Part shown: positions 16,659 through 47,758 of the stretch, piece by piece
Position numbering within the stretch: the stretch's first letter is position 1
Layout: each line of letters starts with the position of its first letter
Source of the DNA: an uncultured Rickettsiales bacterium
Lineage (GTDB): Bacteria; Pseudomonadota; Alphaproteobacteria; Rickettsiales; SXRF01
Direction of reading: 5' to 3'
Assembly (NCBI GenBank): GCA_964405685.1
Contig: CAYOOP010000001.1
Coordinates: 124,551 to 188,550 of the forward strand
DNA: 64,000 nt
The notes under the pieces: generated by a model
What the model was told of the DNA's origin: nothing
Seen by the model: only the letters and a program-made list of their open reading frames with translations
The model's database searches: none
Translations under genes and position numbers: made by a program

Positions 16659-16907
16659 ATGTCTTCTAAAGCCATATTTTATCATGCTGGCTGCCCAGTA
16701 TGCGTTTCTGCTGAACAACAAGTGCTCGATATGGTCGATCGCAGCAAAGTGCAACTCGAGGTGGTGCATTTCGCTAATGCCAAGGATCGCATCGCCGAAG
16801 CCGAAAAAGCAGGGGTTAAATCCGTTCCCGCTTTGGTGATTGACGGCAATGTGTTGCACATCAATTATGGCGCAAGCATGGCAGATGTTAAAAAAGCCGT
16901 TGCATAA
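16659..16907 (+). CDS. Small thioredoxin/glutaredoxin-like protein
   Basis: 82 aa, CPVC motif, GVKSVPALVIDG cis-Pro motif, RBS aaggag. Confidence 0.85.
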   Translation: MSSKAIFYHAGCPVCVSAEQQVLDMVDRSKVQLEVVHFANAKDRIAEAEKAGVKSVPALVIDGNVLHINYGASMADVKKAVA

Positions 16908-16923
16908 TCTACTATAGAATTGC

Positions 16924-16962
16924 GGCGAGTGGGTTAGCATCGGCTGCTCACTCGCCCTTTTT
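16924..16962 (+). terminator. Putative Rho-independent terminator
   Basis: Stem ggcgagtg/cactcgcc followed by a T run, just downstream of the thioredoxin-like gene. Confidence 0.6.
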
Positions 16963-16975
16963 ATTGAGAGAACCA

Positions 16976-17539
16976 ATGAATGAAAACACTAAGATAGCTG
17001 TGGGGATTGAACGTCTGTCGACGGTGTTTCGGGCCGCCTTATGGGAGGAAACCAAACAGTATGGTCTAAGTCCTCTGCAAGCACAAATCCTGCTGTTCAT
17101 CGCTTCACATGCACCGATGCAAAGCAGTGTATCAATATTGGCCAAAGAATTTGCGGTCACGAAAGCAACGATAAGCGATGCTGTGCGTGTGTTGCTGGAG
17201 AAGGCGATGCTTAAGAAACAATCCGGCGATGACGCCAGATCATTTGCATTGCAACTCACGGCGAGCGGCAAAAAACAGGTGCAAAAACTTTCGGCACTCA
17301 CAGCGTATTTTGACGAAGCGCTCAGCTCCATCCCTGCAAATGAGCGCAAAAAAATATGGGAAGGATTACTGTTGCTGATGGGACATTTGCAAAAAACCGG
17401 CGCTATTCCGCTTCGCATGTGTTTTAGTTGTCAACATTATGGCAACCATAAAGGCACACCTTATTGCCATTTGTTGAAACAAACTTTGCAACTAGAAGAC
17501 ATCCGCATCGATTGCCCAGAGCATCTCTTAGCCGCATGA
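16976..17539 (+). CDS. MarR-family regulator with C-terminal Cys cluster
   Basis: LSPLQAQILL, VTKATISDAVRVL..K, D.RS..LQLT.SG wHTH pattern; C-terminal CFSC...C...CPEH. Confidence 0.85.
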   Translation: MNENTKIAVGIERLSTVFRAALWEETKQYGLSPLQAQILLFIASHAPMQSSVSILAKEFAVTKATISDAVRVLLEKAMLKKQSGDDARSFALQLTASGKKQVQKLSALTAYFDEALSSIPANERKKIWEGLLLLMGHLQKTGAIPLRMCFSCQHYGNHKGTPYCHLLKQTLQLEDIRIDCPEHLLAA

Positions 17540-18313: not shown

Positions 18314-18378
18314 TAAGTTAGCACTTCAAAATGTTGGCTGTGGAAGAGCCTGTTTAGTGAATTCGCTCTCAGTATGCC
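18314..18378 (-). repeat. att-like repeat copy A (core plus conserved arm)
   Basis: taagttagcacttcaaaatgttggctg followed by tggaagagcctgtttagtgaattcgctctcagtatgcc; core identical to the sequence at the tRNA-Gln 3' end. Confidence 0.9.
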
Positions 18379-28700: not shown

Positions 28701-30035
28701 AACATCGAGAACATCCTGGGCTCAGCGTATAACGATACGCTGATTGGGACGAGTGCTGCAAATACGCTCGATGGTGCAGCGGGGATTGATACGGTATCTT
28801 ACGCATCATCTACTGCAGCTGTGAATGTAAACCTGAACCTTGCAACCGCACAAACCGGTGGGGATGCCCAGGGCGATATTCTGAAGAATATCGAAAATAT
28901 TCTAGGTTCGGCGTACAACGATACGCTGACGAGTAATACAGCAGCAAATACACTCGATGGTGGCGCAGGTGTGGATACGGTTTCTTATGTTGGTTCTGCT
29001 GCGGGCGTAAGCGTAAATCTGAACCTTACTACGGTACAAGCGGGTAGTAATGCCGCAGGAGATATTCTCAAGAACATCGAAAATGTACTTGGCTCTAGTT
29101 ACAACGACAGCTTTGTAAGCAATGCAATTGCCAATACGTTTGATGGCGCGGCGGGTGTAGACACCGTTTCGTATGCAGGTTCTGCAACGGCTGTGAATGT
29201 GAATCTCGCGCTGACCACCACGCAGGCGGGCGGGAATGCTGCCGGGGATATTCTGAAGAATATCGAAAACCTCACTGGCTCTGCGTATAACGATACGCTC
29301 GCGGGTACGAGTGCGGCGAATACGATTGATGGCGGCGTAGGTATCGACACCATCTCTTACGCCAACTCCACGGCGGCCGTGAATGTGAACCTCGCGCTCA
29401 CCACCGCACAAGCAGGCGGCTTCGCACAAGGCGATATTCTAAGCAACATCGAGAACATCTTGGGTTCGGCGTATAACGATACGTTGATTGGTACGAGTGC
29501 CGCCAACACGCTAGATGGTGCGGCAGGTATAGACACCCTGTCTTATGCTAACTCCATCGCAGGCATCACGGTTAACCTTGGTGTGACCAGCGCCCAAACG
29601 GGCGGGTTTGCGGCAGGCGATATATTGCGGAATATCGAAAACATTAACGGTTCCAACTATAACGATACCATCACCGGCACCACGGCAAGCAACGTGATAT
29701 ACGGCGGCAATGGTGTTGATCGTCTAACCGGCGGCACAGGTGCGGATGTGTTTAAATACGATGCCACCGCCAACTCCGGCATTGGAGCAGGCCTGCGCGA
29801 CATCATCACCGACTTTAACATCGCACAGCTGGATAAGATTGACTTGAGCGCCTTTGCCGGCACATTCGCGTTCAAAGGCACGGCCGCCTTCGGTGGTGGT
29901 GGCCCGCAAGTCAACCACGCTTCCACCTCCGGCATCACCACCATTGGTGTCGATGCCAACGGCGATAACCTACTCGACTTCCAAATCGAACTCACCGGCA
30001 CCCACGCTCTTACAGCGACGGATTTTGTGTTATAG
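19728..30035 (+). CDS. Giant RTX (T1SS-substrate) protein: SLT/lysozyme-like N-terminus, FrpC-type self-processing module, RTX repeats, Ig/cadherin-like domain, S8 peptidase + P-domain, long Ca-binding repeats, serralysin-like C-terminus
   Basis: VKAIMYVE..PMNI..DPVINIRAG..LYN (SLT-like); IDPLVLDLNGNG..GWVGASDGFLVLDKNGDG (SPM); GGxGxD repeats; HATLVAGVI, FAAGN, GTSFATP (S8); DFQIELTG..LTATDFVL C-terminus. Confidence 0.9.
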   Translation: MTETLTDQRIDSIINNTPATFDVSANPNVDSHYGEWKALHSVGAIQVQNYTDIITQEAAAQGVSGDLVKAIMYVEFAQGALYGIPAQAAGVADSLYPMNIKGSIWQDLIPGGDFSDPVINIRAGVTLIKRITDRLDNPTVEEIATLYNSTGRELVSDYGARVKMVKDNQLWLDAQNYPSGYHAETASEYFGITSTIDNVWDSIKVFDNQLASTGQTFLQTIALNIRDSGGLGAALKNLFGANVSANPEVNAPTSSTNFFQISNSVGPNAGEQLDLSLTTDYLNGLAVSGGNWQINLPGSILNTNGLFNVAPSSFLTDGWRPGAGEMANYNLSGQINNATSIWNQAGYDLYNDTVGSFDAFATSALGRINNYVMDATNLLNIDPLVLDLNGNGVELKSYQDANVLFNMDADDYKEQTGWVGASDGFLVLDKNGDGVINDVSEMFSEYFTSGAKNGLAALATMDSNHDGVFSAGDAAYGQVRVWQDVNGNGQTDAGELTTLASRGITSISLNGTPGNGALIAGNEVQVTTTMVMNGTTRAVAAINLLANPNGHEWDLAAQGIMLHSEAGTASFSVSDVNGMTVNVAALGVSGAYGNAGNDTLVGDGTANWLGGGGGSDTFSGGAGNDVLIIDAQDVQANIDGGNGFDIVQVVGEDGVNFNLSQAHVELAYGGVGNDILVGGGTTSVFIAGGAGDDIIIGSGANDALSGNDGNDMADGGYGDDVIRGGRGDDLLIGGFGNDIMDGGLEDDVLQGGDGNDVFLSSGGSDTVDGGAGADIVQFTGSFSEYTRTTLTDGRIVMTDRVASRDGTVTMKNVEFFNFKDINNIGVSWDAPMPADDTVTINPTGTQTILASTLLANDVDYQNHTLRITGLTNTVGGTATLNGAGNVVFTPTAGFSGVMSFQYKIADSQNNPGLTATQPGTGLSAEMKGTVTLQTASLPTDPLFGAQWYLAEANILPVWKNYTGKGVTIGVFETDIFDYQHPDLAPNIATNHPNSIYRPEDIGSHATLVAGVIGAARNGQGGIGVAYDAKLAAQKFDLTTNSYGLQDFVHYDIVNNSWNATPAFSTNFATTPLAQDVLKNAAVNGRDGLGTIMVFAAGNDRAAGGDANGSDHNSSRFSIEVGAINRPGDVGALVTASTPFSNPGASILVSAPGSNITSTSQLLQNADGASFGGDYETVQGTSFATPIISGVAALMLEANPNLGYRDVQKILAYSAVSVNDPNTSWQTNGAVDWNGGGLHVSQDYGFGKVDALAAVRLAETWNTTQTAANEVASVKQSGTVHAAIPDGGSIMQMLNVSNSLQVEHVEVQLTLNHTQLGDLIITLIAPDGTQSVLLNRIDKALGSTDAADRGYGIINVPILLNSTHDFGQNSVGTWQLKITDAAGGQAGTLESWELRLYGQATTPNNTYIYTKEFATSTGSSRQTLNDSAGIDTINAAAITTATTINLTAGSNSTIAGRTLTIGSATTIENIYTGDGNDTITGNGTDNILNGGRGNDIINGGGGNDTITGGMGNDTLTGSTGADIFVINKESGASDIVTDFSAASGDIISVQGFESTYGFANLVRTQSGSNALVTLQNGQTIALNNVTASALTAANFNFGNVLLGTTGTDTLNGTSGDDIIKGISGADILNGAAGNDTIVAGANASTINGGDGNDILKGGAGNDVILGNNHNDTIYGNAGNDTITGDDGIDKIYGGDGNDTIDGGIGNDIIYGGNGVISDFNSTLNNESTESDTIHGGVGDDIIHGAGGNDLLYGDDGNDTIYAGNGGDTADGGNGNDTLYGGIGGDTINGGAGNDSIHGEYAVTDTVGSDDVIHGDDGNDIIAGGGGNDVIYGDAGDDDITGGLGNDTIYGGTGNENYMWGDTGIAGNPTGSDRFVITPRYQANTDVIWDFDNSDQNERVDLSAFNLTTGDFNSRIWVVSGVNYTVPDSNGVVQTYTATDIFIRDTAGSINFSTVFSDPHFQVVTLINVSTLYAYQLLLTTHDGPYWGTTAVNSITGSDDNDIIYGSDGDDTLLGRYGQDRLYGGAGNDTLVGSYGVDVLDGGAGNNWADFSDSFAGVVVNLTSAVQNAGTSIANAAYGDTLINLQNVYGSQANDSITGDANDNILDGLTGADTLNGGAGKDTAEYTYSASAVTVNLTTNVNSGGDAQGDVLSNIENLIGSNFNDTLTGTSANNTIEGGAGADTINGGAGIDTASYAGSTAGITVNLTLTTMQSGGDAQGDMLSGIEHIIGSSFNDTLTALAAGSTLDGGVGSDTLNGGAGNDTLIGGAGADTMNGSGSVDTISYASSSAGINVNLALTTAQSGGDAQGDILSSIENLIGSAFDDALAGSSAANTINGGARNDTISYSNSTAAVNVNLDLTTAQSGGFAAGDILSNIENVIGSNFNDTLTGTAAANNINGGTGIDIISYANSAAAVNVNLTLTTAQASGYAQGDILSNIENLTGSNFNDILTGSAVANTINGGAGNDTLDGGNGNDTLTGGTGADVFILQKEANARDVITDFSISTSGEKISLLGFTAAINFTNLAISQQGADAVITLENGQTLTLSNVTASTLTAASFGESGALIGTAGDDILTGTSGNDTMQGLDGNDIITGRAGADTLDGGAGVDTLSYSDSASAVNVNLATGAASGGDAQGDVITNFENLTGSGYNDTLVGSMVANMINGGAGVDLVSYLDSTAGVSVNLGLATVQSGGSAAGDMLSNIENLTGSNYSDTLTGNAVDNIINGGAGNDNINGAAGNDTINGGDGDDILNGGTGADNLTGGNGIDTASYSASAAAVTINLTTNVNTGGDAQGDLLYTIENLTGSAYNDIITGSAANNVLLGGAGADTLDGAGGMDTVSYTGSNAAVVIDLGLATAQSGGHAAGDILKNIENILGSAYNDTLNGTSAANTLDGASGVDVVSYAGSNAAINVNLALTGAQTGGHAQGDILSNVEGLIGSNYNDTLGGSSAVNVLDGGVGVDTVSYANSSAAVTVNLTLTTAQTGGFAQGDILKNIENILGSAYNDTLIGTSAANTLDGAAGIDTVSYASSTAAVNVNLNLATAQTGGDAQGDILKNIENILGSAYNDTLTSNTAANTLDGGAGVDTVSYVGSAAGVSVNLNLTTVQAGSNAAGDILKNIENVLGSSYNDSFVSNAIANTFDGAAGVDTVSYAGSATAVNVNLALTTTQAGGNAAGDILKNIENLTGSAYNDTLAGTSAANTIDGGVGIDTISYANSTAAVNVNLALTTAQAGGFAQGDILSNIENILGSAYNDTLIGTSAANTLDGAAGIDTLSYANSIAGITVNLGVTSAQTGGFAAGDILRNIENINGSNYNDTITGTTASNVIYGGNGVDRLTGGTGADVFKYDATANSGIGAGLRDIITDFNIAQLDKIDLSAFAGTFAFKGTAAFGGGGPQVNHASTSGITTIGVDANGDNLLDFQIELTGTHALTATDFVL
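28131..29700 (+). repeat. Tandem 186-bp (62-aa) intragenic repeats
   Basis: Unit-start GAT codons at 28689, 28875 and 29061 are 186 bp apart; unit DILKNIENILGSAYNDTL..DGAAGIDTVSY..VNVNL..AQ.GG.AQG; array ends approximate. Confidence 0.85.
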
Positions 30036-30141
30036 GGTTCTGTGCGGGAAGAATAATATCCAGCGTGCCTATGGCTGTAAGCAGGCGGTAAGCGCCCAGG
30101 ATTTGGCGGGATTCGGCGCGGATGAGATTGACGCGGGCGGT

Positions 30142-31023
30142 GTACATCTCGTCACGCAGCGCCAGGCACAGCTCGGAAAACTCAAAACACTCAAACAACG
30201 CGTGGAGCAATTGCGCGAGGAAATTATCGGGCTGGAAGCGCAAGTGCGCAGTGCTGAGGGGCAGCTTGCACTGACCGATGAAGAAATAGCCTCTGTGCAA
30301 GCATTGCTGCAAGAAGGGCTGGCGACCAAGCCACGCCTACTCGCACTCCAGCGCCAATCGGAAGAATTGCGCGGTCAGCACGGACAAACACTCGCCTCTA
30401 TCGCCAAAGCAAAGCAGGCAATTACCGAATCGGAATTGCAAGTGATCAATCAGGAAAATGATTTTGCGACTTCTATTGCTGCCGAGCTGCGCGAGATTCG
30501 CACCAAAATCGCTGACTATGAAGAGAAATTGCGCGTGGCTTCGGATGTGATGGCACGCACCACCGTGCTTGCGCCAACCGAAGGCATCGTCACAGGCCTG
30601 AAATTTCATACCATTGGTGGGGTGGTGCCGCCGGGCGCTACAATTATGGACATTGTGCCACAGAGCGATATGCTTGTACTCGATGTACGCATTCAACCAA
30701 CCGATATTGATGTGGTGAAACCCGGTCTTGAAGCGAAGGTAGTATTTTCAGCCTACAAAGCTCGCCGCATGCCGCTGGTTATGGGAAAAGTCACGCAAGT
30801 GTCGCCGGATGCATTTATCGAGCAGCAAGGCATTCAACCCGTTTCCTACTACACCGCGCGTGTAGAAGTGGATGGTGAACAAACCCGCGCGCTCGGAAGC
30901 GCTGTTACGCTTACCCCCGGCATACCTGCGGATGTCTTCATCCGCACCGGCAGCCGATCCTTCCTCGGCTATCTCCTCGCCCCACTGACCGAAAGCATGG
31001 ACCGCGCATTTAAGGAAGAATAG
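30142..31023 (+). pseudogene. 5'-truncated HlyD-family T1SS periplasmic adaptor
   Basis: Coiled coil plus VLAPTEGIVTGLKFHTIGGVVPPG, IQPTDID.V.PG, LTPGIPADVFIRTGSRSFLGYLLAP; no N-terminal TM segment and no plausible start codon; start coordinate approximate. Confidence 0.82.
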
Positions 31024-31127: not shown

Positions 31128-31187
31128 TTAGCACTTCAAAATGTTGACTGGGGAAGAGCCTGTTTAGTGAATTCGCTCTCAGCATGC
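31128..31187 (-). repeat. att-like repeat copy B
   Basis: ttagcacttcaaaatgttgactg-ggaagagcctgtttagtgaattcgctctcagcatgcc; near-identical to copy A. Confidence 0.9.
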
Positions 31188-31252
31188 CAAGAAAAATGGG
31201 CAGAAATACATTTCTGCGACATTCGGGGCAGTGTGAGCCTCAAGTGGGCTAA

Positions 31253-31804
31253 TTAAGAGCCACTTTTTAGTTTTTTTGCGATACATTTTTTCATGCATTG
31301 CTTGTGTGCTTCTTCCTTTTTCTTTTTTGCTTCTTCAGCTTGTTGCTGTTTCTGTTCCTCGGTTGGTTTGTCTTTGTCAGATGCAGAAAATGGATTGGGA
31401 GGTGTTAACGGCTGTTTGCCACCACTATCTGACTTAGGTAGGTTCGAGGAACCGAAACAGACAAAGGTAGCACAATATGATTGTGCGCTTTCGTAGTTTT
31501 CCTTATCTTTTTTTTGCTGGCCGAAATTTTTTGCCAGCGGGTCCTTCGGTTTGTCTGATCCGTGATTTTTCAGCGCATCTTTATTCTCTTTGGCAAAATC
31601 GGTGATCTCAGCGTTACGTTTTTGCTCTTTTGCGTCTTGCAAGTCTTTCTTAAAGCCTGCTTCGCCCGTGTTGGGATTGATAGATTTGTTGGCTACGGCA
31701 GGGCGCTGGCTATCTGCATCAGCCGTACGAGGTGCTCCGAGTTGGGCGTGGGCAGCGGTAGCAAGTGCTACAGATAGAATGATTGATGAAACAGGACGTA
31801 TCAT
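31253..31804 (-). CDS. Secreted Lys/Gln-rich protein with paired-Cys motifs (paralog 4)
   Basis: Signal peptide ending AHA-QLG; NPNTGEAGFKKDLQDAK; CATFVC...CMKKC. Confidence 0.8.
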   Translation of the reverse strand: MIRPVSSIILSVALATAAHAQLGAPRTADADSQRPAVANKSINPNTGEAGFKKDLQDAKEQKRNAEITDFAKENKDALKNHGSDKPKDPLAKNFGQQKKDKENYESAQSYCATFVCFGSSNLPKSDSGGKQPLTPPNPFSASDKDKPTEEQKQQQAEEAKKKKEEAHKQCMKKCIAKKLKSGS

Positions 31805-31819
31805 AAAGTTGCTCCTGTC

Positions 31820-32419
31820 TTATGGTTTATCAGTGCTCGAAGATTTATCTGAATCTTGCTGCAATTCTTCCGAGGTTTTTTCAATGCCAGCACCCACGCC
31901 TTGTGCGCCGCCCTTTGCAATGCATTCATCCACGCACTGCTTGATTTCTTCAGGGGTTTTCGTTTTCTGGCTGCCGACCGAAGGGTGATAGGTTCCTCCT
32001 CCGACTGAACCACCAAACGGTGTCTTCACAGGATCTTGGTGAATGCCACCAGCGGGGGGCATTCCAGAAGGATTGCAAAAATTGGTGCAAAACTTCTTAG
32101 TGCTCGCCTGTTTCTTTGCTGCTAATTGTCCGCCATCATCAACACCTGATTTCGGTTTTTGGTCGTCCGATCCAGGCAAGGCTTTTTTGCCCAGTTGCTT
32201 GGCCTCTCCAGAACCTTCAGCAATGTCAGCCGCGCGTTTTTGATCTTTTGCATCTTGCAAATTTTTTTTGAAACCTGCTTCACCTGTGTTTGGATTCATG
32301 GATTTGCCGTTTACCGCGCGGGCGGTGTCCTCTGCGCTTCGGCCGATTTGTGCAGTGGCAGGAAGCGCCAGCAGCGATGCCGCGACGGTAGCAAGTAAAA
32401 TAATATGCAAACGTGACAT
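31820..32419 (-). CDS. Secreted protein with twin CX3C motifs (paralog 3)
   Basis: Signal peptide ending ATA-QIG; NPNTGEAGFKKNLQDAK; CTNFC...CVDEC. Confidence 0.8.
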   Translation of the reverse strand: MSRLHIILLATVAASLLALPATAQIGRSAEDTARAVNGKSMNPNTGEAGFKKNLQDAKDQKRAADIAEGSGEAKQLGKKALPGSDDQKPKSGVDDGGQLAAKKQASTKKFCTNFCNPSGMPPAGGIHQDPVKTPFGGSVGGGTYHPSVGSQKTKTPEEIKQCVDECIAKGGAQGVGAGIEKTSEELQQDSDKSSSTDKP

Positions 32420-32438
32420 GAGGTGGTTCCTTTCCTTG

Positions 32439-33059
32439 TTATTTAGGACATTTGGTGAGGCAGGCTTCGTATTGCTGTTTTTTCATTTCCGCATCTGGGT
32501 CAGATTTGGAGGGTTCAAGCGGCGATTTTAGGCTGTTATCTATTGCCGATTTCAAAGGATTCTTCGGATAGTATTTATTCTTGCACTTGGCCTCGCACTT
32601 GGCTTTGGATAGCTCCAAACCGCCTTCGCTTATACCCGCTTGCGTGTTTTGCTCTGCCGCAAGGTTACCAGACTTCGCTGCTTCTGAAGGAGGTAGTTTC
32701 GTTGTGGATTTGCCAGTTCTTTTTGCGTCCACAGGCCTTACGTCATCCAATTTGAGGCTGCCATCTTTCACCTCAATCGTAGAGCCGCCGTCTTGTTTAA
32801 ACTTGCTGCCACCTTCTACCTTGAAGCCGCTTCCTTCCTGCTTGAACTCACTGCCATTATGGAACGTAGGGCCTTTATCAGTTTTGAGTTCGCTACCGCC
32901 AACCACTTTTGGGCCTTCATCGGTTTTGAACTCGCTTGATTCAAAGGTAACCTTTGGCGAGTTATTGTTACGATTCTGCGAAGCGCCAATTTGCGCGTCG
33001 GCACTGAAAGTCATAAGTGCAAGAGCAGCACTAGTAAGAAGTGTGGAGTGAAGGGTCAT
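32439..33059 (-). CDS. Secreted protein with GSEFK-like repeats and twin CX3C motifs (paralog 2)
   Basis: Signal peptide ending ADA-QIG; repeated (S/G)SE(F/L)K(T/Q)(D/E); CEAKC...CLTKC. Confidence 0.8.
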   Translation of the reverse strand: MTLHSTLLTSAALALMTFSADAQIGASQNRNNNSPKVTFESSEFKTDEGPKVVGGSELKTDKGPTFHNGSEFKQEGSGFKVEGGSKFKQDGGSTIEVKDGSLKLDDVRPVDAKRTGKSTTKLPPSEAAKSGNLAAEQNTQAGISEGGLELSKAKCEAKCKNKYYPKNPLKSAIDNSLKSPLEPSKSDPDAEMKKQQYEACLTKCPK

Positions 33060-33075
33060 GGTATTCTCCTAAACA

Positions 33076-33612
33076 TTATTTCTCGCAGCCTTGTTTGCAG
33101 GCTTCGTATTTTTCTTTGACCTTTTTGTACTGCTCATAAATTTCTGGCTTGCAGATGGCATTGGGGCCTGAATTACACATGCCACTAAATTTAGCCACGC
33201 TTACTTTGAAAGTCGTAGTGCAAGAAGACAAGCAGGATTTCTTTTTCTTCTCTTTTTCCTCTGCCGCTTTTTTGGCTGCAGCGGCATCTTTTTTATCCTG
33301 CGTATATTTAGCGCCTTGCTTTTGCAGATTGTCATCCTGCTTTGGGGCCTCTAACCCCGGCGCAGATTTCTCTGCCTGCTCTTTTGCTTTATTCGCTGCA
33401 TCTATGGTACGCGCATCCTGCACTTCTTTTTTGAGTTGGTCATTGCCCTGCGGGCCTTTGGAGGCGTTCGGTTTGACAATTTCAATCTGCGCCGGGGATA
33501 TACCCATTTTGCTGACACCATCATTTGTATGCTGTATGCCGATCTGAGCATGAGCACCACTTGCCAGAAAAGCGGCCGCAAAAAACACTAAACAGTAGAA
33601 TGATTTTAACAT
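33076..33612 (-). CDS. Secreted protein with twin CX3C motifs (paralog 1)
   Basis: Signal peptide ending AHA-QIG; CLSSC...C..C...CKQGC. Confidence 0.8.
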   Translation of the reverse strand: MLKSFYCLVFFAAAFLASGAHAQIGIQHTNDGVSKMGISPAQIEIVKPNASKGPQGNDQLKKEVQDARTIDAANKAKEQAEKSAPGLEAPKQDDNLQKQGAKYTQDKKDAAAAKKAAEEKEKKKKSCLSSCTTTFKVSVAKFSGMCNSGPNAICKPEIYEQYKKVKEKYEACKQGCEK

Positions 33613-33644
33613 AAAGGTTCCTTTGCATATCGAAGCAAGTACGA

Positions 33645-33911
33645 TTACTGCCCCTGGGTTTGGAAAATAATTGCTTTATCTGTTTTCTTAGAAGTTTGGC
33701 TTCCACCAGAAATTTCTTCTTCACCCTTATTCTGGAAAATAATGGCCTTATCCGTTTTTTTATTTGCTGGATTTTTTGCCTTTTCAGCATGCACAGATTT
33801 TGGCGCGGGAATCTTTGCCGATTCAGAATCGATTGTTTTTGCAAGCGATACTTGCGCGGAAAAAGCCAGCGCAGATATCACAGTACATAGAATTAGCTGA
33901 TAATGCTTCAT
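33645..33911 (-). CDS. Small secreted protein with duplicated KKTDKAIIFQ motif
   Basis: RBS gggagg, signal peptide, exact 10-aa duplication. Confidence 0.72.
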   Translation of the reverse strand: MKHYQLILCTVISALAFSAQVSLAKTIDSESAKIPAPKSVHAEKAKNPANKKTDKAIIFQNKGEEEISGGSQTSKKTDKAIIFQTQGQ

Positions 33912-34008
33912 AAAACCTCCCGTTTTATGATTTACTCTCCGTGACCCTACTCCCGTGCAGATAGCGACTCAAATTAAATTTTCATTACAGTTTTGTAATA
34001 TAGGACAA

Positions 34009-34857
34009 TTACTTAAGTCCACCACCTTTTTTTGCAGAAATCTTGGGTTCAAAGGGCTTTTCGTACGCACCATCGCCGGTTTCGGTAACAAAATAATCAA
34101 TGGTGGGTAGTGTCTCATCGGTCGCAGGGGCAAGCATGCGCAGGCGCACGCGGTAGCGACCAAGAGTACCAGTTGGTAACTCTGGGCTTACCAATGTAAG
34201 CTGGTTATTTGCGCCGACAGGACGGGTGACATTTTTCAGTGGACGATAGAGCGGCTGATCCAACCCGCCAAAATTATCCGCTACTTCCCATACGGCACGC
34301 AGCACACCGGAGCCTGATACATTGACTTCTGCGCGCGCGCGAAGCGCTTCTTTTTGTGCTATGGCGCGGTAATCCGTACCGTCCTCAAAAGTCAGCGTTT
34401 GGCTGGCAAGGCCAGGCTGCCCAGCGGTTCCGCCGGTAATGGTAATGGTGACTTCATCACTATTGGCAAACACCCCGTCATCGGCAAAGAAGCGTTCATA
34501 CTCAAGCACTGCCCCTTGACGCTGTGCCGCTAACACTACATGGCGTGGTACGGTCACATTTTCTACAATATTGACTACTCCAACCAATCCATTGGGAATA
34601 GAGCGTGTAATGGTACGGGTAGTAGCGGTGGTAGGCGCGCCAGCAATCTTGAACGTACCTGCTTGTCCAATCATCGTACCCGTACCCGCGAAAGGGGTAT
34701 GAGTCACCTGCCATGTGACTACAAATGTCGAATTACCAGAAACGCTCGCCTCACGCGTGGTAGGATTGACTGATACACCAGTTACTGTTGCAAAAGCGGC
34801 ATAAGGCAGGAAGAGAGCTATGAGCAAAGGAAGCGTTTTCATAATATTACCATCCAA
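34009..34857 (-). CDS. Exported beta-rich (Ig-like) hypothetical protein
   Basis: Signal peptide (LPLLIALFLPYAAFA); Thr/Val-rich alternating strands; overlaps stop of upstream gene; true start may be the second Met. Confidence 0.7.
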   Translation of the reverse strand: MDGNIMKTLPLLIALFLPYAAFATVTGVSVNPTTREASVSGNSTFVVTWQVTHTPFAGTGTMIGQAGTFKIAGAPTTATTRTITRSIPNGLVGVVNIVENVTVPRHVVLAAQRQGAVLEYERFFADDGVFANSDEVTITITGGTAGQPGLASQTLTFEDGTDYRAIAQKEALRARAEVNVSGSGVLRAVWEVADNFGGLDQPLYRPLKNVTRPVGANNQLTLVSPELPTGTLGRYRVRLRMLAPATDETLPTIDYFVTETGDGAYEKPFEPKISAKKGGGLK

Positions 34858-36880
34858 ATGGTGCGTTAATCTTTATGTTAGCATAGATTTTATATTGGCT
34901 GCCGATATCACTGCGCACATTCGCATGATCTGCTACATTTTGATATTGTGCGTTGAGTCCAATACCATAACCAGGTGCGTTGCGCTCCGCTTCAGCAAAC
35001 CTCCAAAACAGTTCGCCTGAAACGTTATATTGTTTATCATCATGGCCGGAATCATTAAGCTGGATAGAGCCATAGGTGTGGCTGGTGAGCACGTCTTCCA
35101 GAATAATGTAATTGACATCAATCCCAGCAAAATAATTGCTCTGTTCTTTGGCGGAAACATAGCGCAGGCGTTCATGTTGCAGCGAGGGTGAAACGGTGAA
35201 ACTCTCGGTAGGAAAATAGGAAAACGAAAGCTCGGTGAGATGCGAATCTTGGTTATCTGAGAGTAGAATCTTATCACGATACTCGGTGTAAGTATGCGTA
35301 AGCGACAAACTCGATTGCTCAAAATTTGTGTTCCAGCCAATGTTACCGCCGGAATTGTGATAACGTAGGTTATCACCCAAAAACCCCGCCGGCGTTTTAT
35401 CGCGGAACGTATTATGCAAATATGCACCCGTCGTGAAAGTACTGTTATTAAACCAGTCCAAGCCCTCCACTTCCAACCCTAGATACGAGGGCGTAAAGCT
35501 TGCCTGAACCGACCCGCCTTGTGTTTTATCCGTAGGCACATCAACCAGCTGATTCACGTTGTTTTTCATCACATATCCATCCGCCACTAGCGTAAACGTG
35601 TCATGCACAAAATCTGACGTGAGGCTTACGCGTTTTTGATCGCTGGGGAGGTTGTTGTTAGTAATGGCGTGGAAATAAGTGCCTACGCGCTTAGCGTCCA
35701 ACGTCAGATTCCAATTCACCTCATTATAGGTAGCAGGGTTTAAATCACCCCACAAAGCAACACTTGCCAGTCCGCGTGCTGCCTCATCATTCAGCGGACC
35801 AATCATCGTACCATCACCGTCATAGTCATAATGCGTGTGCGCAAATTCGCCCTTAAGACGCGTGCGATCTTTGAGACCACGCCATTCAGTGCCGAGATTC
35901 CAACCCTTGCCAGATTTACTGATATCGTCAATCAGCGCATCGCCCCGACCACGTTCGCGTCCATCACCGCTTACATAGCCACCTTCTACCCAAAAATGTT
36001 CGTCGAATCCGAGCGGATAAAACTGCATCTGTGTGCCGCTAACACGTTCATTTGGTTCGCGTACACCGCTGATATTCACACTGCCGATAGCACGCGCCGG
36101 GTCCTGCGAAAAACCGATCACACGCACATGTTCCAGCGCCTCCAGTTGCAACGAGGCACCACGGCGATAAAATTTGTCCATCAATAGGTTAGAAACACCG
36201 ACATCATGGTTGCCAAACCGCAGCATGGCATTGCCATGTTCTGAAAATCCACGGCCGGTGAGCAAATATTCACCGTATTGCCATGGGCGATCATCATAGT
36301 TGTTGGCGGGTATCGAGTCGTAATTTCCGTTGAATTTTGCACGAAAATCCCAATGTGTGCCACCCGCCACAGCATTCGTATCAAGGAATGCATTCGCTGT
36401 GTGCGTATCGGGGTGGTTGCGGCCACGTAAATTCTTGTCAGCAAGTAGGGTGTTATATTGCCCGGTAGCCTCACCCCACACTTGTTGGTCGTCACCGGTT
36501 TGCCCACCCACGCGAACGACCCAACGCTCCAATTCTGTGTATTTCTCGTTACCCACATGCTCATACAGTTTCACCACATGGTCGCCAACGCTTAAGCGGT
36601 TACTTGGCTGGTATGTCACTCGGCGGCCGGAAAGTTGCACGGATGGTGTAACATCTTCTCCATCAAACTGCAGAAATAGATTGCCTTTACGCTCGTCGGA
36701 AATTGCGTCAGTCAGGTCAAATACGATGGCATCGGTAGGGCTGATGGCGCTTTGGCGGGCAGCAGGTTGCACAAGAGCAATCGCATCGGCGGTGTGCGCA
36801 GCAAACGGCAAACCGAGGCTAATCCCGCCAGCAATAGCGCTGCACAAAAGCAACTCCGATATTTTGAAGCCAACCCTCAT
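34847..36880 (-). CDS. Putative outer-membrane beta-barrel protein with N-terminal Ig-like domain
   Basis: 677 aa; signal peptide; amphipathic strands with Gly/aromatic periodicity; terminal aromatic residue (APFGW). Confidence 0.65.
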   Translation of the reverse strand: MRVGFKISELLLCSAIAGGISLGLPFAAHTADAIALVQPAARQSAISPTDAIVFDLTDAISDERKGNLFLQFDGEDVTPSVQLSGRRVTYQPSNRLSVGDHVVKLYEHVGNEKYTELERWVVRVGGQTGDDQQVWGEATGQYNTLLADKNLRGRNHPDTHTANAFLDTNAVAGGTHWDFRAKFNGNYDSIPANNYDDRPWQYGEYLLTGRGFSEHGNAMLRFGNHDVGVSNLLMDKFYRRGASLQLEALEHVRVIGFSQDPARAIGSVNISGVREPNERVSGTQMQFYPLGFDEHFWVEGGYVSGDGRERGRGDALIDDISKSGKGWNLGTEWRGLKDRTRLKGEFAHTHYDYDGDGTMIGPLNDEAARGLASVALWGDLNPATYNEVNWNLTLDAKRVGTYFHAITNNNLPSDQKRVSLTSDFVHDTFTLVADGYVMKNNVNQLVDVPTDKTQGGSVQASFTPSYLGLEVEGLDWFNNSTFTTGAYLHNTFRDKTPAGFLGDNLRYHNSGGNIGWNTNFEQSSLSLTHTYTEYRDKILLSDNQDSHLTELSFSYFPTESFTVSPSLQHERLRYVSAKEQSNYFAGIDVNYIILEDVLTSHTYGSIQLNDSGHDDKQYNVSGELFWRFAEAERNAPGYGIGLNAQYQNVADHANVRSDIGSQYKIYANIKINAPFGW

Positions 36881-37044
36881 GGGGAGAAATATTTACCAAA
36901 TCGGTATTTTTTGTCTATGATGAAATGGTTCACTATGGGCACACGAGATACCAAACATCCCTATAGAATGCTGGCGGAGTATGATTGCTAATGTGATGGT
37001 GGAATGGTGGTAAGCCCGATACAGGCGCGGAGTTGCGATTCTCA

Positions 37045-37120
37045 CAGGCCAGACTTAAGTTAGCACTTCAAAATGTTGGCTGTGGAATGGCGAATTTAGT
37101 GAAAATGCTCTCAGCATGCC
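37045..37120 (-). repeat. att-like repeat copy C
   Basis: 37045-37082 is identical over 38 bp to 47652-47689; followed by a diverged arm (tttagtgaaaatgctctcagcatgcc) shared with copies A and B. Confidence 0.92.
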
Positions 37121-37239
37121 AGAGAAAATAAGCAGAAAAAAACCTCTAATGGATCGTGTCTGATTTATTGATAGTGCGCACACAGGTAGCGGGTTGTTTA
37201 ACATATTGCCAACTATAGCACGCATTCTATAGTGCACGG

Positions 37240-47651: not shown

Positions 47652-47689
47652 CAGGCCAGACTTAAGTTAGCACTTCAAAATGTTGGCTG
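47652..47689 (-). repeat. att-like repeat copy D overlapping tRNA-Gln 3' end
   Basis: caggccagacttaagttagcacttcaaaatgttggctg; the last 6 nt are the tRNA 3' terminal CAGCCA. Confidence 0.92.
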
Positions 47690-47758
47690 GGGCGCCAGGA
47701 TTCGAACCTGGGAATGCCGGTACCAAAAACCGGTGCCTTACCGCTTGGCGACGCCCCA
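47684..47758 (-). tRNA. tRNA-Gln (TTG)
   Basis: TGGGGCG/CGCCCCA acceptor stem, anticodon arm CCGGT-TTTTGGT-ACCGG, T-loop GTTCGAATC, encoded CCA; 75 nt. Confidence 0.97.

Follow-up and report, generated by a model that had tools for sequence, protein, structure and literature searches.

A narrow family of secreted twin-cysteine-pair paralogs encoded beside a putative outer-membrane barrel in an uncultured Rickettsiales bacterium

We analysed a 64,000-nucleotide (nt) stretch of DNA from an uncultured Rickettsiales bacterium (GenBank assembly GCA_964405685.1, contig CAYOOP010000001.1, positions 124,551 to 188,550; hereafter the window) and found that four tandem minus-strand genes (p178, p206, p199 and p183) encode exported paralogs of a twin-Cys-pair family that, as judged from sequence, is very narrow and lies outside every family with which it was compared. 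This family adjoins the genes for a 677-amino-acid (aa) barrel-like protein and its immunoglobulin (Ig)-like partner in all three loci where adjacency could be tested, and from this linkage we infer a role for the paralogs as substrates or subunits. We tentatively read them as fast-evolving cargo, or surface or matrix subunits, of a barrel/partner export module in which the mature N-terminus would act as a recognition tag, an explanation that we hold with somewhat less than even confidence.

The initial annotation of this region, made from the letters alone, had described four tandem open reading frames (ORFs) whose signal peptides end in AxA and whose mature chains begin with Q-I/L-G, and all of this was borne out (Table 1). 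Each ORF starts with ATG, stops with TAA and has a Shine-Dalgarno-like GGAG/AGGA 5-9 nt upstream, and the gaps among the four genes measure 15-19 nt. In the order p178, p206, p199 and p183, the signal peptides end in AHA, ADA, ATA and AHA, the mature chains begin with QIG, QIG, QIG and QLG, and the two Cys pairs near the C-terminus are separated by 40, 40, 46 and 53 residues, as annotated. The Cys motifs themselves stood as listed except that the first pair of p183 is CX4C rather than CX3C, and two pairs per protein proved right apart from p178, in which a third pair within the loop had been overlooked. The mature paralogs are hydrophilic (grand average of hydropathy -0.96 to -1.39), contain 12-19% Lys and have isoelectric points of 8.3-9.2; across the family, mature members span 153-218 aa and carry a net charge of +2 to +9 together with many acidic residues. 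Segments preceding the last Cys pair of the paralogs are Lys-rich, and His and Met are almost lacking.

Sequence comparison divides the four into subtypes. The type-II proteins p183 and p199 match each other with a BLAST E of 2e-19 and have in common NPNTGEAGFKK(D/N)LQDAK, the motif that the initial annotation had noticed in two of the proteins; p178 gave a weak match (E 4e-4). No direct BLAST match links p206 to the other three, which marks it as a distinct subtype (type I); it is tied to them through the shared N-terminus, the Cys quartet and a chimeric gene in a second barrel-bearing genome, G022. On sequence grounds, the pattern presented by the four paralogs is beyond chance, with the Cys quartet kept in all full-length members.

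The mature N-terminus also stands out within the genome that carries the window. In a crude whole-genome scan for signal-peptide candidates among ORFs with AxA cleavage (n=152), Gln occupied the +1 position in 19 of 152, and the strict AxA-Q[IL][GN] start was found in 4 of 152, all of them the four paralogs. Outside this genome, AQIGASQ and the Cys quartet are invariant in the type-I homologues P0004, P0010 and P0012 despite an overall identity of 35-52%, which suggests that the type-I N-terminus is under selection.

A full HMMER scan with a profile of the mature paralogs, covering 1.84 billion representatives that stand for about 15 billion proteins, recovered eight proteins: the four of the window, two from G022, and P0004 and P0010, both from metagenome assemblies. 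Word-indexed searches of 5.8 billion clusters agreed, returning only these eight family members. Two further partial genes lie on short contigs, adjoining P0004 and P0010, which brings the family to ten members from four lineages. All eight full-length members (three lineages) keep the Cys quartet and both partial genes the first pair, and the spacing between pairs is 42-57 residues in the homologues. The segment KS(I/M)NPN(T/A)GE(A/V)GFKK(D/N)L is nearly invariant across four aligned type-II proteins; the partial type-II gene on contig L042 is more divergent than these. Pfam and NCBIfam scans of all seven proteins of the surrounding cassette yielded nothing above noise, a search of PDB sequences with the paralog profile gave no relevant match, and Joint Genome Institute metagenome contigs scanned with the type-II alignment held no relative. 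The initial annotation had recognised no bacterial family in these proteins, and Pfam, NCBIfam, PDB sequences and PDB folds were all without a match to a characterised one.

Within this small family, divergence is fast and modular. In the comparison of the window with G022, which crosses genera, identity is 71% for the barrel and 76% for the partner, compared with 38-42% for the paralogs, and the copy number differs, with four paralogs in the window and two in G022, one of them chimeric. The 175-aa protein of G022 matches p199 (BLAST E 5e-19). The chimeric gene (L013 7623-8348, 241 aa) joins a p206-like type-I N-terminal half, the type-II motif and a p178-like six-Cys C-terminal half, and the match to p178 covers the C-terminal halves of both proteins; we take this architecture as evidence of recombination among paralogs. 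The lower identity of the paralogs relative to the barrel, the differing copy number and the chimera together indicate fast, modular evolution, and this rate of divergence and the chimeric gene are typical of surface-exposed or secreted cargo.

We obtained an AlphaFold2 (AF2) model of mature p206 from a six-row alignment. Mature residues 1-122 were modelled as unstructured, with a predicted local distance difference test (pLDDT) score of about 43, followed by helices at 123-141, 146-154 and 166-180 in a block whose pLDDT reaches 87-89. Cys133 and Cys137 lie in the first helix and Cys178 in the last, with Cys182 two residues past its end. The model supports two helical CX3C motifs that would face each other across a long loop containing a short helix, in line with the helical hairpin of the initial annotation; closure of the hairpin and disulfide geometry are our extrapolation from it. 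The loop had also been called hypervariable, which holds between paralogs but not between p206 and its closest homologue P0004, where part of it is conserved (PLKSAIDNSLKSP in p206, PLNSAIENSTKSP in P0004) and forms the predicted short third helix. A DsbA-family gene is present in the genome, which makes oxidation in the periplasm plausible. In the mature proteins about 90-165 disordered residues precede the C-terminal module. With the p206 model, Foldseek found no significant match; its hits were all alpha-hairpins, among them complex III hinge proteins and the MexA/AcrA hairpin.

The paralogs close a block of seven co-oriented minus-strand genes (31253-36880) that begins with the barrel, its partner and an 88-aa protein, all seven products of which carry signal peptides. 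The five small genes have ATG starts, TAA stops and GGAG/AGGA-type ribosome-binding sites and are separated by spacers of 15-32 nt, with 97 nt after the partner gene; the seven appear to form one co-transcribed operon with the barrel first and p183 last. The AF2 model of the barrel is all-beta and of low confidence (pLDDT 52.6), and Foldseek searches with it retrieved only generic outer-membrane barrels at template-modelling scores of about 0.2. Pfam matched none of 13 barrel homologues, and PDB profile searches with barrel and partner gave no significant relative. The partner gene directly follows the barrel gene in all nine loci read (the window and eight aligned homologues), and the partner belongs to no Pfam family, with only weak fn3-like signals in its longer homologues.

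The barrel itself is rare: among 401 genomes of the order we detected it in 5, among 400 others of the class in 6, and a few more cases came from the rest of the phylum, and a scan of genome contigs with the single barrel sequence returned no relative. Its bearers among the relatives are metagenome-assembled genomes labelled 'uncultured Rickettsiales bacterium' and 'Micavibrio sp.'. The loci fall into two types. Type A comprises the window, G022, L020, G036, L016, L017 and G187, with barrels 28-71% identical to that of the window, and every type-A locus has at least one secreted low-complexity protein beside the barrel. Type B comprises G009, L023, G444, G615, G617 and G719, with barrels 17-25% identical to that of the window, each accompanied by the partner and, where type A has its small proteins, by an extracytoplasmic function (ECF) sigma factor, a zf-HC2 anti-sigma factor and an S8 protease with a signal peptide. 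When Pfam was run on homologous partners, neighbours and the 13 barrels, only the ECF sigma, zf-HC2 and S8 genes of the distant loci were identified. This set looks like a conserved envelope module of Alphaproteobacteria and beyond. In L015 (G009), L023 and L037-L040 the C-terminus of the S8 subtilase is a Cys or lies at most two residues from one, and several type-B barrel/partner sets are preceded by a secreted protein of 430-480 aa.

Only the closest type-A loci carry the twin-Cys-pair family, which most barrel-bearing genomes lack. Where adjacency could be tested, it lies next to the barrel/Ig pair in 3/3 loci (the window, G022 and the ENA contig L020), in three arrangements and three genomic contexts, consistent with the initial proposal of a link to the barrel encoded upstream. 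In the window and G022 it belongs to the operon of the barrel, and in L020 it is transcribed divergently from it. The fourth lineage is represented by 1-kb contigs only, which preserve the gene order (88-aa-like, type I, type II) and are too short to reach a barrel. As a provisional definition we combine a signal peptide, a Q-I/L-G start, a hydrophilic body, CX3(4)C...CX3C and a barrel/Ig-like neighbour; these features were found in all four window proteins and also in the two G022 proteins, P0004, P0010 and the two partial genes, one QMR start excepted and with barrel adjacency in the 3/3 testable loci.

The remaining four type-A loci carry unrelated low-complexity secreted proteins, which are Gly/Ser-rich in G036, Gly/Met/Asn-rich in L016 and G187, and His/Met/Gly-rich in L017. 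Three of these four neighbours begin with QIN, QLG and QIN after an AxA site, against a background of 0/148 in the genome of the window, so that chance is an unlikely cause and selection on the mature N-terminus is indicated. A shared N-terminal module of 50 residues with the G036 neighbour was considered and dropped, as a profile search of that genome gave no match at E<=10. Low-complexity secreted proteins transcribed divergently from type-A barrels lie at L016 3960-5249 (-), L029 4279-5736 (-), L017 1-393 (-) and L014 5650-6264 (-). Two of them are Gly/Met/Asn-rich with DNKPGGQFG-type (FG-like) repeats and a common C-terminal ...NPGR...GPRINMGNGTV(V/I)NPG, one has APHMN/TPHMN His/Met repeats and another is Gly/Ser/Asp-rich, which suggests hydrogel-like or metal-binding material.

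The 88-aa protein has homologues with the same repeat in the same position in G022 (62% identity) and on the Logan contig L043, upstream of P0010. Across three lineages (33645-33911; L013 7275-7565; L043 1-240), no other part of the small cassette proteins is conserved as well as its K(K)TDKAIIFQN(K/Q/E)G repeat. Short strands resembling it (GIIVQGG, NIKIQGG, GIIIHKNG) lie close to the N-terminus in low-complexity neighbours at other loci. The AIIFQN repeats are a possible strand motif, and the longer KKTDKAIIFQNxG unit could be strand-donating or nucleating.

Based on these observations, we propose the following model for the favoured reading. The paralogs would be exported by Sec and cleaved by signal peptidase to expose Q-I/L-G. 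Most of the chain would be an intrinsically disordered Lys-rich polyampholyte, its sole folded element being a C-terminal helix-loop-helix of about 60 residues in which the periplasmic Dsb system would join the two CX3(4)C motifs through two disulfides (C1-C4, C2-C3). The conserved mature N-terminus would then engage the partner or the barrel as a recognition tag, the disordered chain would be threaded out across the outer membrane, and the disulfide-clamped hairpin would serve as a stopper or anchor, or as a functional head. The disulfides, hairpin closure, outer-membrane translocation and tag function of Q-I/L-G are steps that we infer. A module with interchangeable co-encoded cargo is consistent with three observations: cargo type changes from locus to locus, divergence is fast and type-B loci carry an S8 protease. 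A bolder version, which we consider unlikely, would have the barrel and Ig-like partner form a route, so far undescribed, by which Alphaproteobacteria export disordered low-complexity proteins across the outer membrane, with cargo known by Q-I/L-G/N, perhaps recognised via beta-strand augmentation of the Ig-like partner or the N-terminal sandwich of the barrel, and with the hairpin stopper leaving a Lys-rich polymer brush on the surface.

Several points weigh against the cargo reading. The low pLDDT of the barrel model leaves a channel function only putative, and a disulfide-clamped hairpin would be a poor substrate for a narrow channel for unfolded proteins. The low-complexity neighbour in G187 is without a Q-I/L-G start, the type-II paralog on L042 begins QMR, and the N-terminal 50-residue profile misses the G036 neighbour, which confines the statistical support to the tripeptide. 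Gene linkage would also fit periplasmic accessory factors equally well.

Resemblances to known families are best described as 'works like': on that level the module resembles a helical hairpin stapled by disulfides, and the whole set resembles dedicated outer-membrane machinery that exports unfolded substrates. Curli/Fap, chaperone-usher and YjbH/GfcD systems have operon logic in common with the block but no homologous component. In curli, the N-terminal segment of the mature substrate is a targeting signal and CsgC is an Ig-like periplasmic protein, and FapC has a conserved C-terminal Cys motif. Like curli (CsgA/B, CsgG, CsgE, CsgF, CsgC) and Fap (FapB/C/E and the FapF barrel), the block co-encodes an outer-membrane component and periplasmic accessories with small Sec-exported paralogs of the kind that serve there as substrates. 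Unlike them, it shows a single barrel of about 24 strands with an N-terminal beta-sandwich in place of the CsgG nonamer or FapF trimer, and its paralogs are Lys-rich and charged where curli and Fap substrates have Gln/Asn/Gly amyloid repeats. No protein of the block, whether paralog, 88-aa protein, partner or barrel, had a curli or Fap match in Pfam or NCBIfam, and a curli-like amyloid reading of the paralogs was rejected on composition. Chaperone-usher operons likewise combine a large barrel that has a periplasmic N-terminal domain with an Ig-like periplasmic partner and tandem secreted paralogs of 150-200 aa with one disulfide-bearing region (predicted here); their subunits are Ig-fold pilins, whereas those of the window are predicted to be disordered and helical, and the window barrel is without the usher C-terminal domains. 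No Usher (PF00577), PapD-like or Fimbrial/SCPU match appeared at E<=1, nor at E<=10 for the 13 barrels. The capsule-assembly barrel operons of YjbH/GfcD (with the small, low-complexity YjbE/GfcA) were set aside in turn, PF06082 being unmatched in the whole genome at E<=10 while control genomes matched. In Myxococcus, the Sec-exported subtilase PopC is secreted through the outer-membrane barrel Oar. Distant members of the barrel family are similarly co-encoded with a signal-peptide S8 protease, which suggests barrel-dependent export of cargo, but this barrel is no TonB-dependent transporter (Pfam matched neither a plug nor such transporters) and the window locus is without the protease.

The paralogs could instead be periplasmic residents, either disordered holdase- or chaperone-like proteins or hydrophilins that protect the envelope, acting for the benefit of the barrel/partner complex or of the envelope, in a functional parallel to the twin-CX3C small Tims that escort barrel precursors through the mitochondrial intermembrane space. 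We consider this possible though rather doubtful. The proteins carry Sec signals only, with no recognisable outer-membrane targeting domain, the compartment that would house their twin Cys-pair helical module is oxidising and has DsbA, their genes always accompany one for a beta-barrel protein, and relatives of the host are labelled alphaproteobacteria. Small Tims, proteins of 80-100 aa, place their twin CX3C motifs around a short loop of about 11-16 residues; here the spacing is 40-57 residues, and the mature proteins, at 153-218 aa, are 2-3 times larger and mostly disordered. The resemblance to Tim9/Tim10 lies in the twin CX3C on an antiparallel helical hairpin (predicted here), an oxidising compartment homologous to the periplasm and the association with beta-barrels; in the window proteins, by contrast, the loop is far longer and includes an additional short helix, a large N-terminal region is disordered and nothing hints at a hexamer. 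None of the four matched zf-Tim10_DDP (PF02953) in Pfam at E<=1, nor did PDB sequences hold anything relevant, and no similarity to Tim10/DDP or to any chaperone family was found at that threshold. Very fast divergence, a copy number of 2-4 and a chimeric gene would be unusual for a housekeeping chaperone, and the family is missing from most barrel-bearing genomes. Its restriction to four lineages means that it is no candidate ancestor of the small Tims.

A further suggestion treats the paralogs as precursors, from which a cationic, disulfide-stapled C-terminal hairpin peptide resembling alpha-hairpinins, with antibacterial or other biological activity, would be released, possibly by a protease, to act on competing bacteria or prey. 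Two Cys pairs in predicted helices, basic proteins with Lys-rich segments before the last pair, fast evolution of tandem paralogs, the label Micavibrio (a predatory genus) on relatives of the host and the S8 protease at distant barrel loci speak for it. We nonetheless judge it improbable: the net charge is just +2 to +9 over 153-218 residues, the cassette holds no immunity-like gene and all seven of its products have signal peptides, and Pfam and NCBIfam gave no match, PADLOC and bacteriocin libraries not having been searched. The curated alpha-hairpinin motif reads CX3C-X4-20-CX3C (4C) or CX3CX3C-X4-20-CX3CX3C (6C) (PMC11591084, Table 1), and the window proteins depart from it in a spacing of 40-57 rather than 4-20 residues, in the CX4C of p183 and in p178, whose extra Cys lie in the loop and form no CX3CX3C array. 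Plant alpha-hairpinins are antimicrobial peptides that fold as a helix-loop-helix held by two interhelical disulfides. Both groups have two CX3C-type motifs in or at the end of predicted helices, a signal peptide and six-Cys variants; the plant proteins, however, are peptides of about 30-50 aa, while the module here is the C-terminal third of a mostly disordered protein from a bacterial host and shows no sequence similarity to them. The likeness to alpha-hairpinins and small Tims raised in the initial annotation thus does not extend to membership, with the module confined to the C-terminal 60 of 153-218 residues.

Helix-borne CX3C pairs can also bind Cu(I), as in Csp1-type proteins, and the paralogs might be periplasmic Cu(I)/Zn binding or buffering proteins with the four Cys as ligands, comparable to PcoE/SilE, which are disordered metal sponges, or to CX3C-rich copper storage proteins. 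A cassette of cbb3 oxidase and Cu-ATPase genes adjoins the block, and beside other barrels the low-complexity proteins are rich in Met (L016, G187) or in His and Met (L017). With just 4-6 Cys per paralog and His and Met nearly lacking, cco linkage that is not conserved (the flanks differ in G022), a Gly/Ser-rich G036 neighbour that offers no metal ligands, and disulfides as the simpler reading of exported Cys pairs in a DsbA-containing organism, we rate this as very improbable. Least credible of all is that the four are non-functional or spurious ORFs of a decaying island. Orphan status, low-complexity composition and a GC content somewhat below that of the neighbours would fit, yet the frames and Shine-Dalgarno sites are intact in four lineages with gene order kept, and the Cys quartet and N-terminus are invariant despite 35-50% overall identity.

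If linkage reflects function, these proteins would provide a handle on an unrecognised outer-membrane module made up of an orphan barrel and an Ig-like partner, which is thinly scattered across Pseudomonadota, usually with an ECF sigma/anti-sigma pair and a subtilase. The window version supplies small, tractable candidate substrates with two mutable features, the N-terminal tripeptide and the Cys quartet, which makes the secretion/assembly hypothesis directly testable in a laboratory host. The family would also be the first bacterial one found with a conserved CX3C pair on a (predicted) helical hairpin, of relevance to oxidative folding and, by analogy only, to the origins of such hairpins in mitochondria and plants. 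With ten members from four lineages, all of them uncultured, the family is extremely rare, and its general importance is limited accordingly.

Table 1. Positions of the paralogs, the rest of the seven-gene block and its boundary elements in the window
Feature	Coordinates	Strand	Basis and description
Paralog p178	33076..33612	-	ORF and translation; 178 aa; Shine-Dalgarno aaagga; signal peptide ...GAHA/QIG; Lys-rich disordered body; six Cys (CLSSC, CNSGPNAIC, CKQGC)
p178 C-terminal Cys module	~33079-33270	-	Translation
Paralog p206 (type I)	32439..33059	-	ORF; 206 aa; signal peptide ...SADA/QIGASQN; GSEFKQEGG-type repeats; CEAKC...CLTKC
p206 C-terminal helical module	~32442-32627	-	AF2 model
Paralog p199 (type II)	31820..32419	-	ORF; 199 aa; signal peptide ...PATA/QIG; KSMNPNTGEAGFKKNLQDAK; CTNFC...CVDEC; 33-residue acidic tail
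Paralog p183 (type II)	31253..31804	-	ORF; 183 aa; last gene of the predicted operon; signal peptide ...AAHA/QLG; KSINPNTGEAGFKKDLQDAK; CATFVC (CX4C)...CMKKC
88-aa secreted protein	33645..33911	-	Between partner and paralogs; two KKTDKAIIFQNxG repeats; no Cys
Ig-like/beta-sandwich partner	34009..34842	-	ATG at 34842; MKTLPLL...; ~277 aa; signal peptide
677-aa barrel-like protein	34847..36880	-	Signal peptide; N-terminal beta-sandwich; ~24 strands; C-terminal ...APFGW
Terminator-like hairpin and T-run	31200..31217	-	36 nt past the p183 stop; consensus scan only
Repeated intergenic element, 3' boundary of block	31128..31215	+	23-nt exact core TTAGCACTTCAAAATGTTGRCTG
Same repeated element, upstream of barrel promoter region	37042..37147	+	23-nt exact core TTAGCACTTCAAAATGTTGRCTG

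The terminator-like hairpin downstream of p183 likely marks the end of the operon; such sites are overall not enriched in the region. The core of the repeated element that flanks the block occurs in four exact co-oriented copies (18318-18340, 31128-31150, 37060-37082 and 47667-47689), each inside a longer similar element of 44-106 nt, and the last copy abuts the 3' end of a tRNA-Gln gene (47684-47758, minus strand). These copies split the region into three blocks, namely RTX, the seven-gene cassette and Fnr/cco. The element was absent elsewhere in the genome and from four other barrel-bearing genomes, and neither end of the repeat array (16.3-19.7 kb and 47.6-52 kb) showed an integrase. The repeat may be an attachment (att) site or a terminator-bearing intergenic repeat; a mobile-cassette reading of the repeat-bounded block is unproven given the lack of an integrase at the array ends and of the repeat in those other genomes. 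At the cassette boundary, an ORF with HlyD-like membrane-fusion sequence (29854-31023) starts inside the 3' end of a 3435-aa RTX gene, stops roughly 100 nt short of the repeat at 31128 and apparently has no N-terminal membrane segment, and may be a truncated type I secretion component. Beside the repeat array, a glutaredoxin-like and a MarR-like gene of the window (16659-17539) are 89% and 80% identical to genes of G187 (L029 10129-11299) that lie 1-2 kb from its barrel locus. G187 belongs to a different family and its barrel is only about 28% identical to that of the window, and the sharing of these two genes may reflect a common hot spot or a mobile module.

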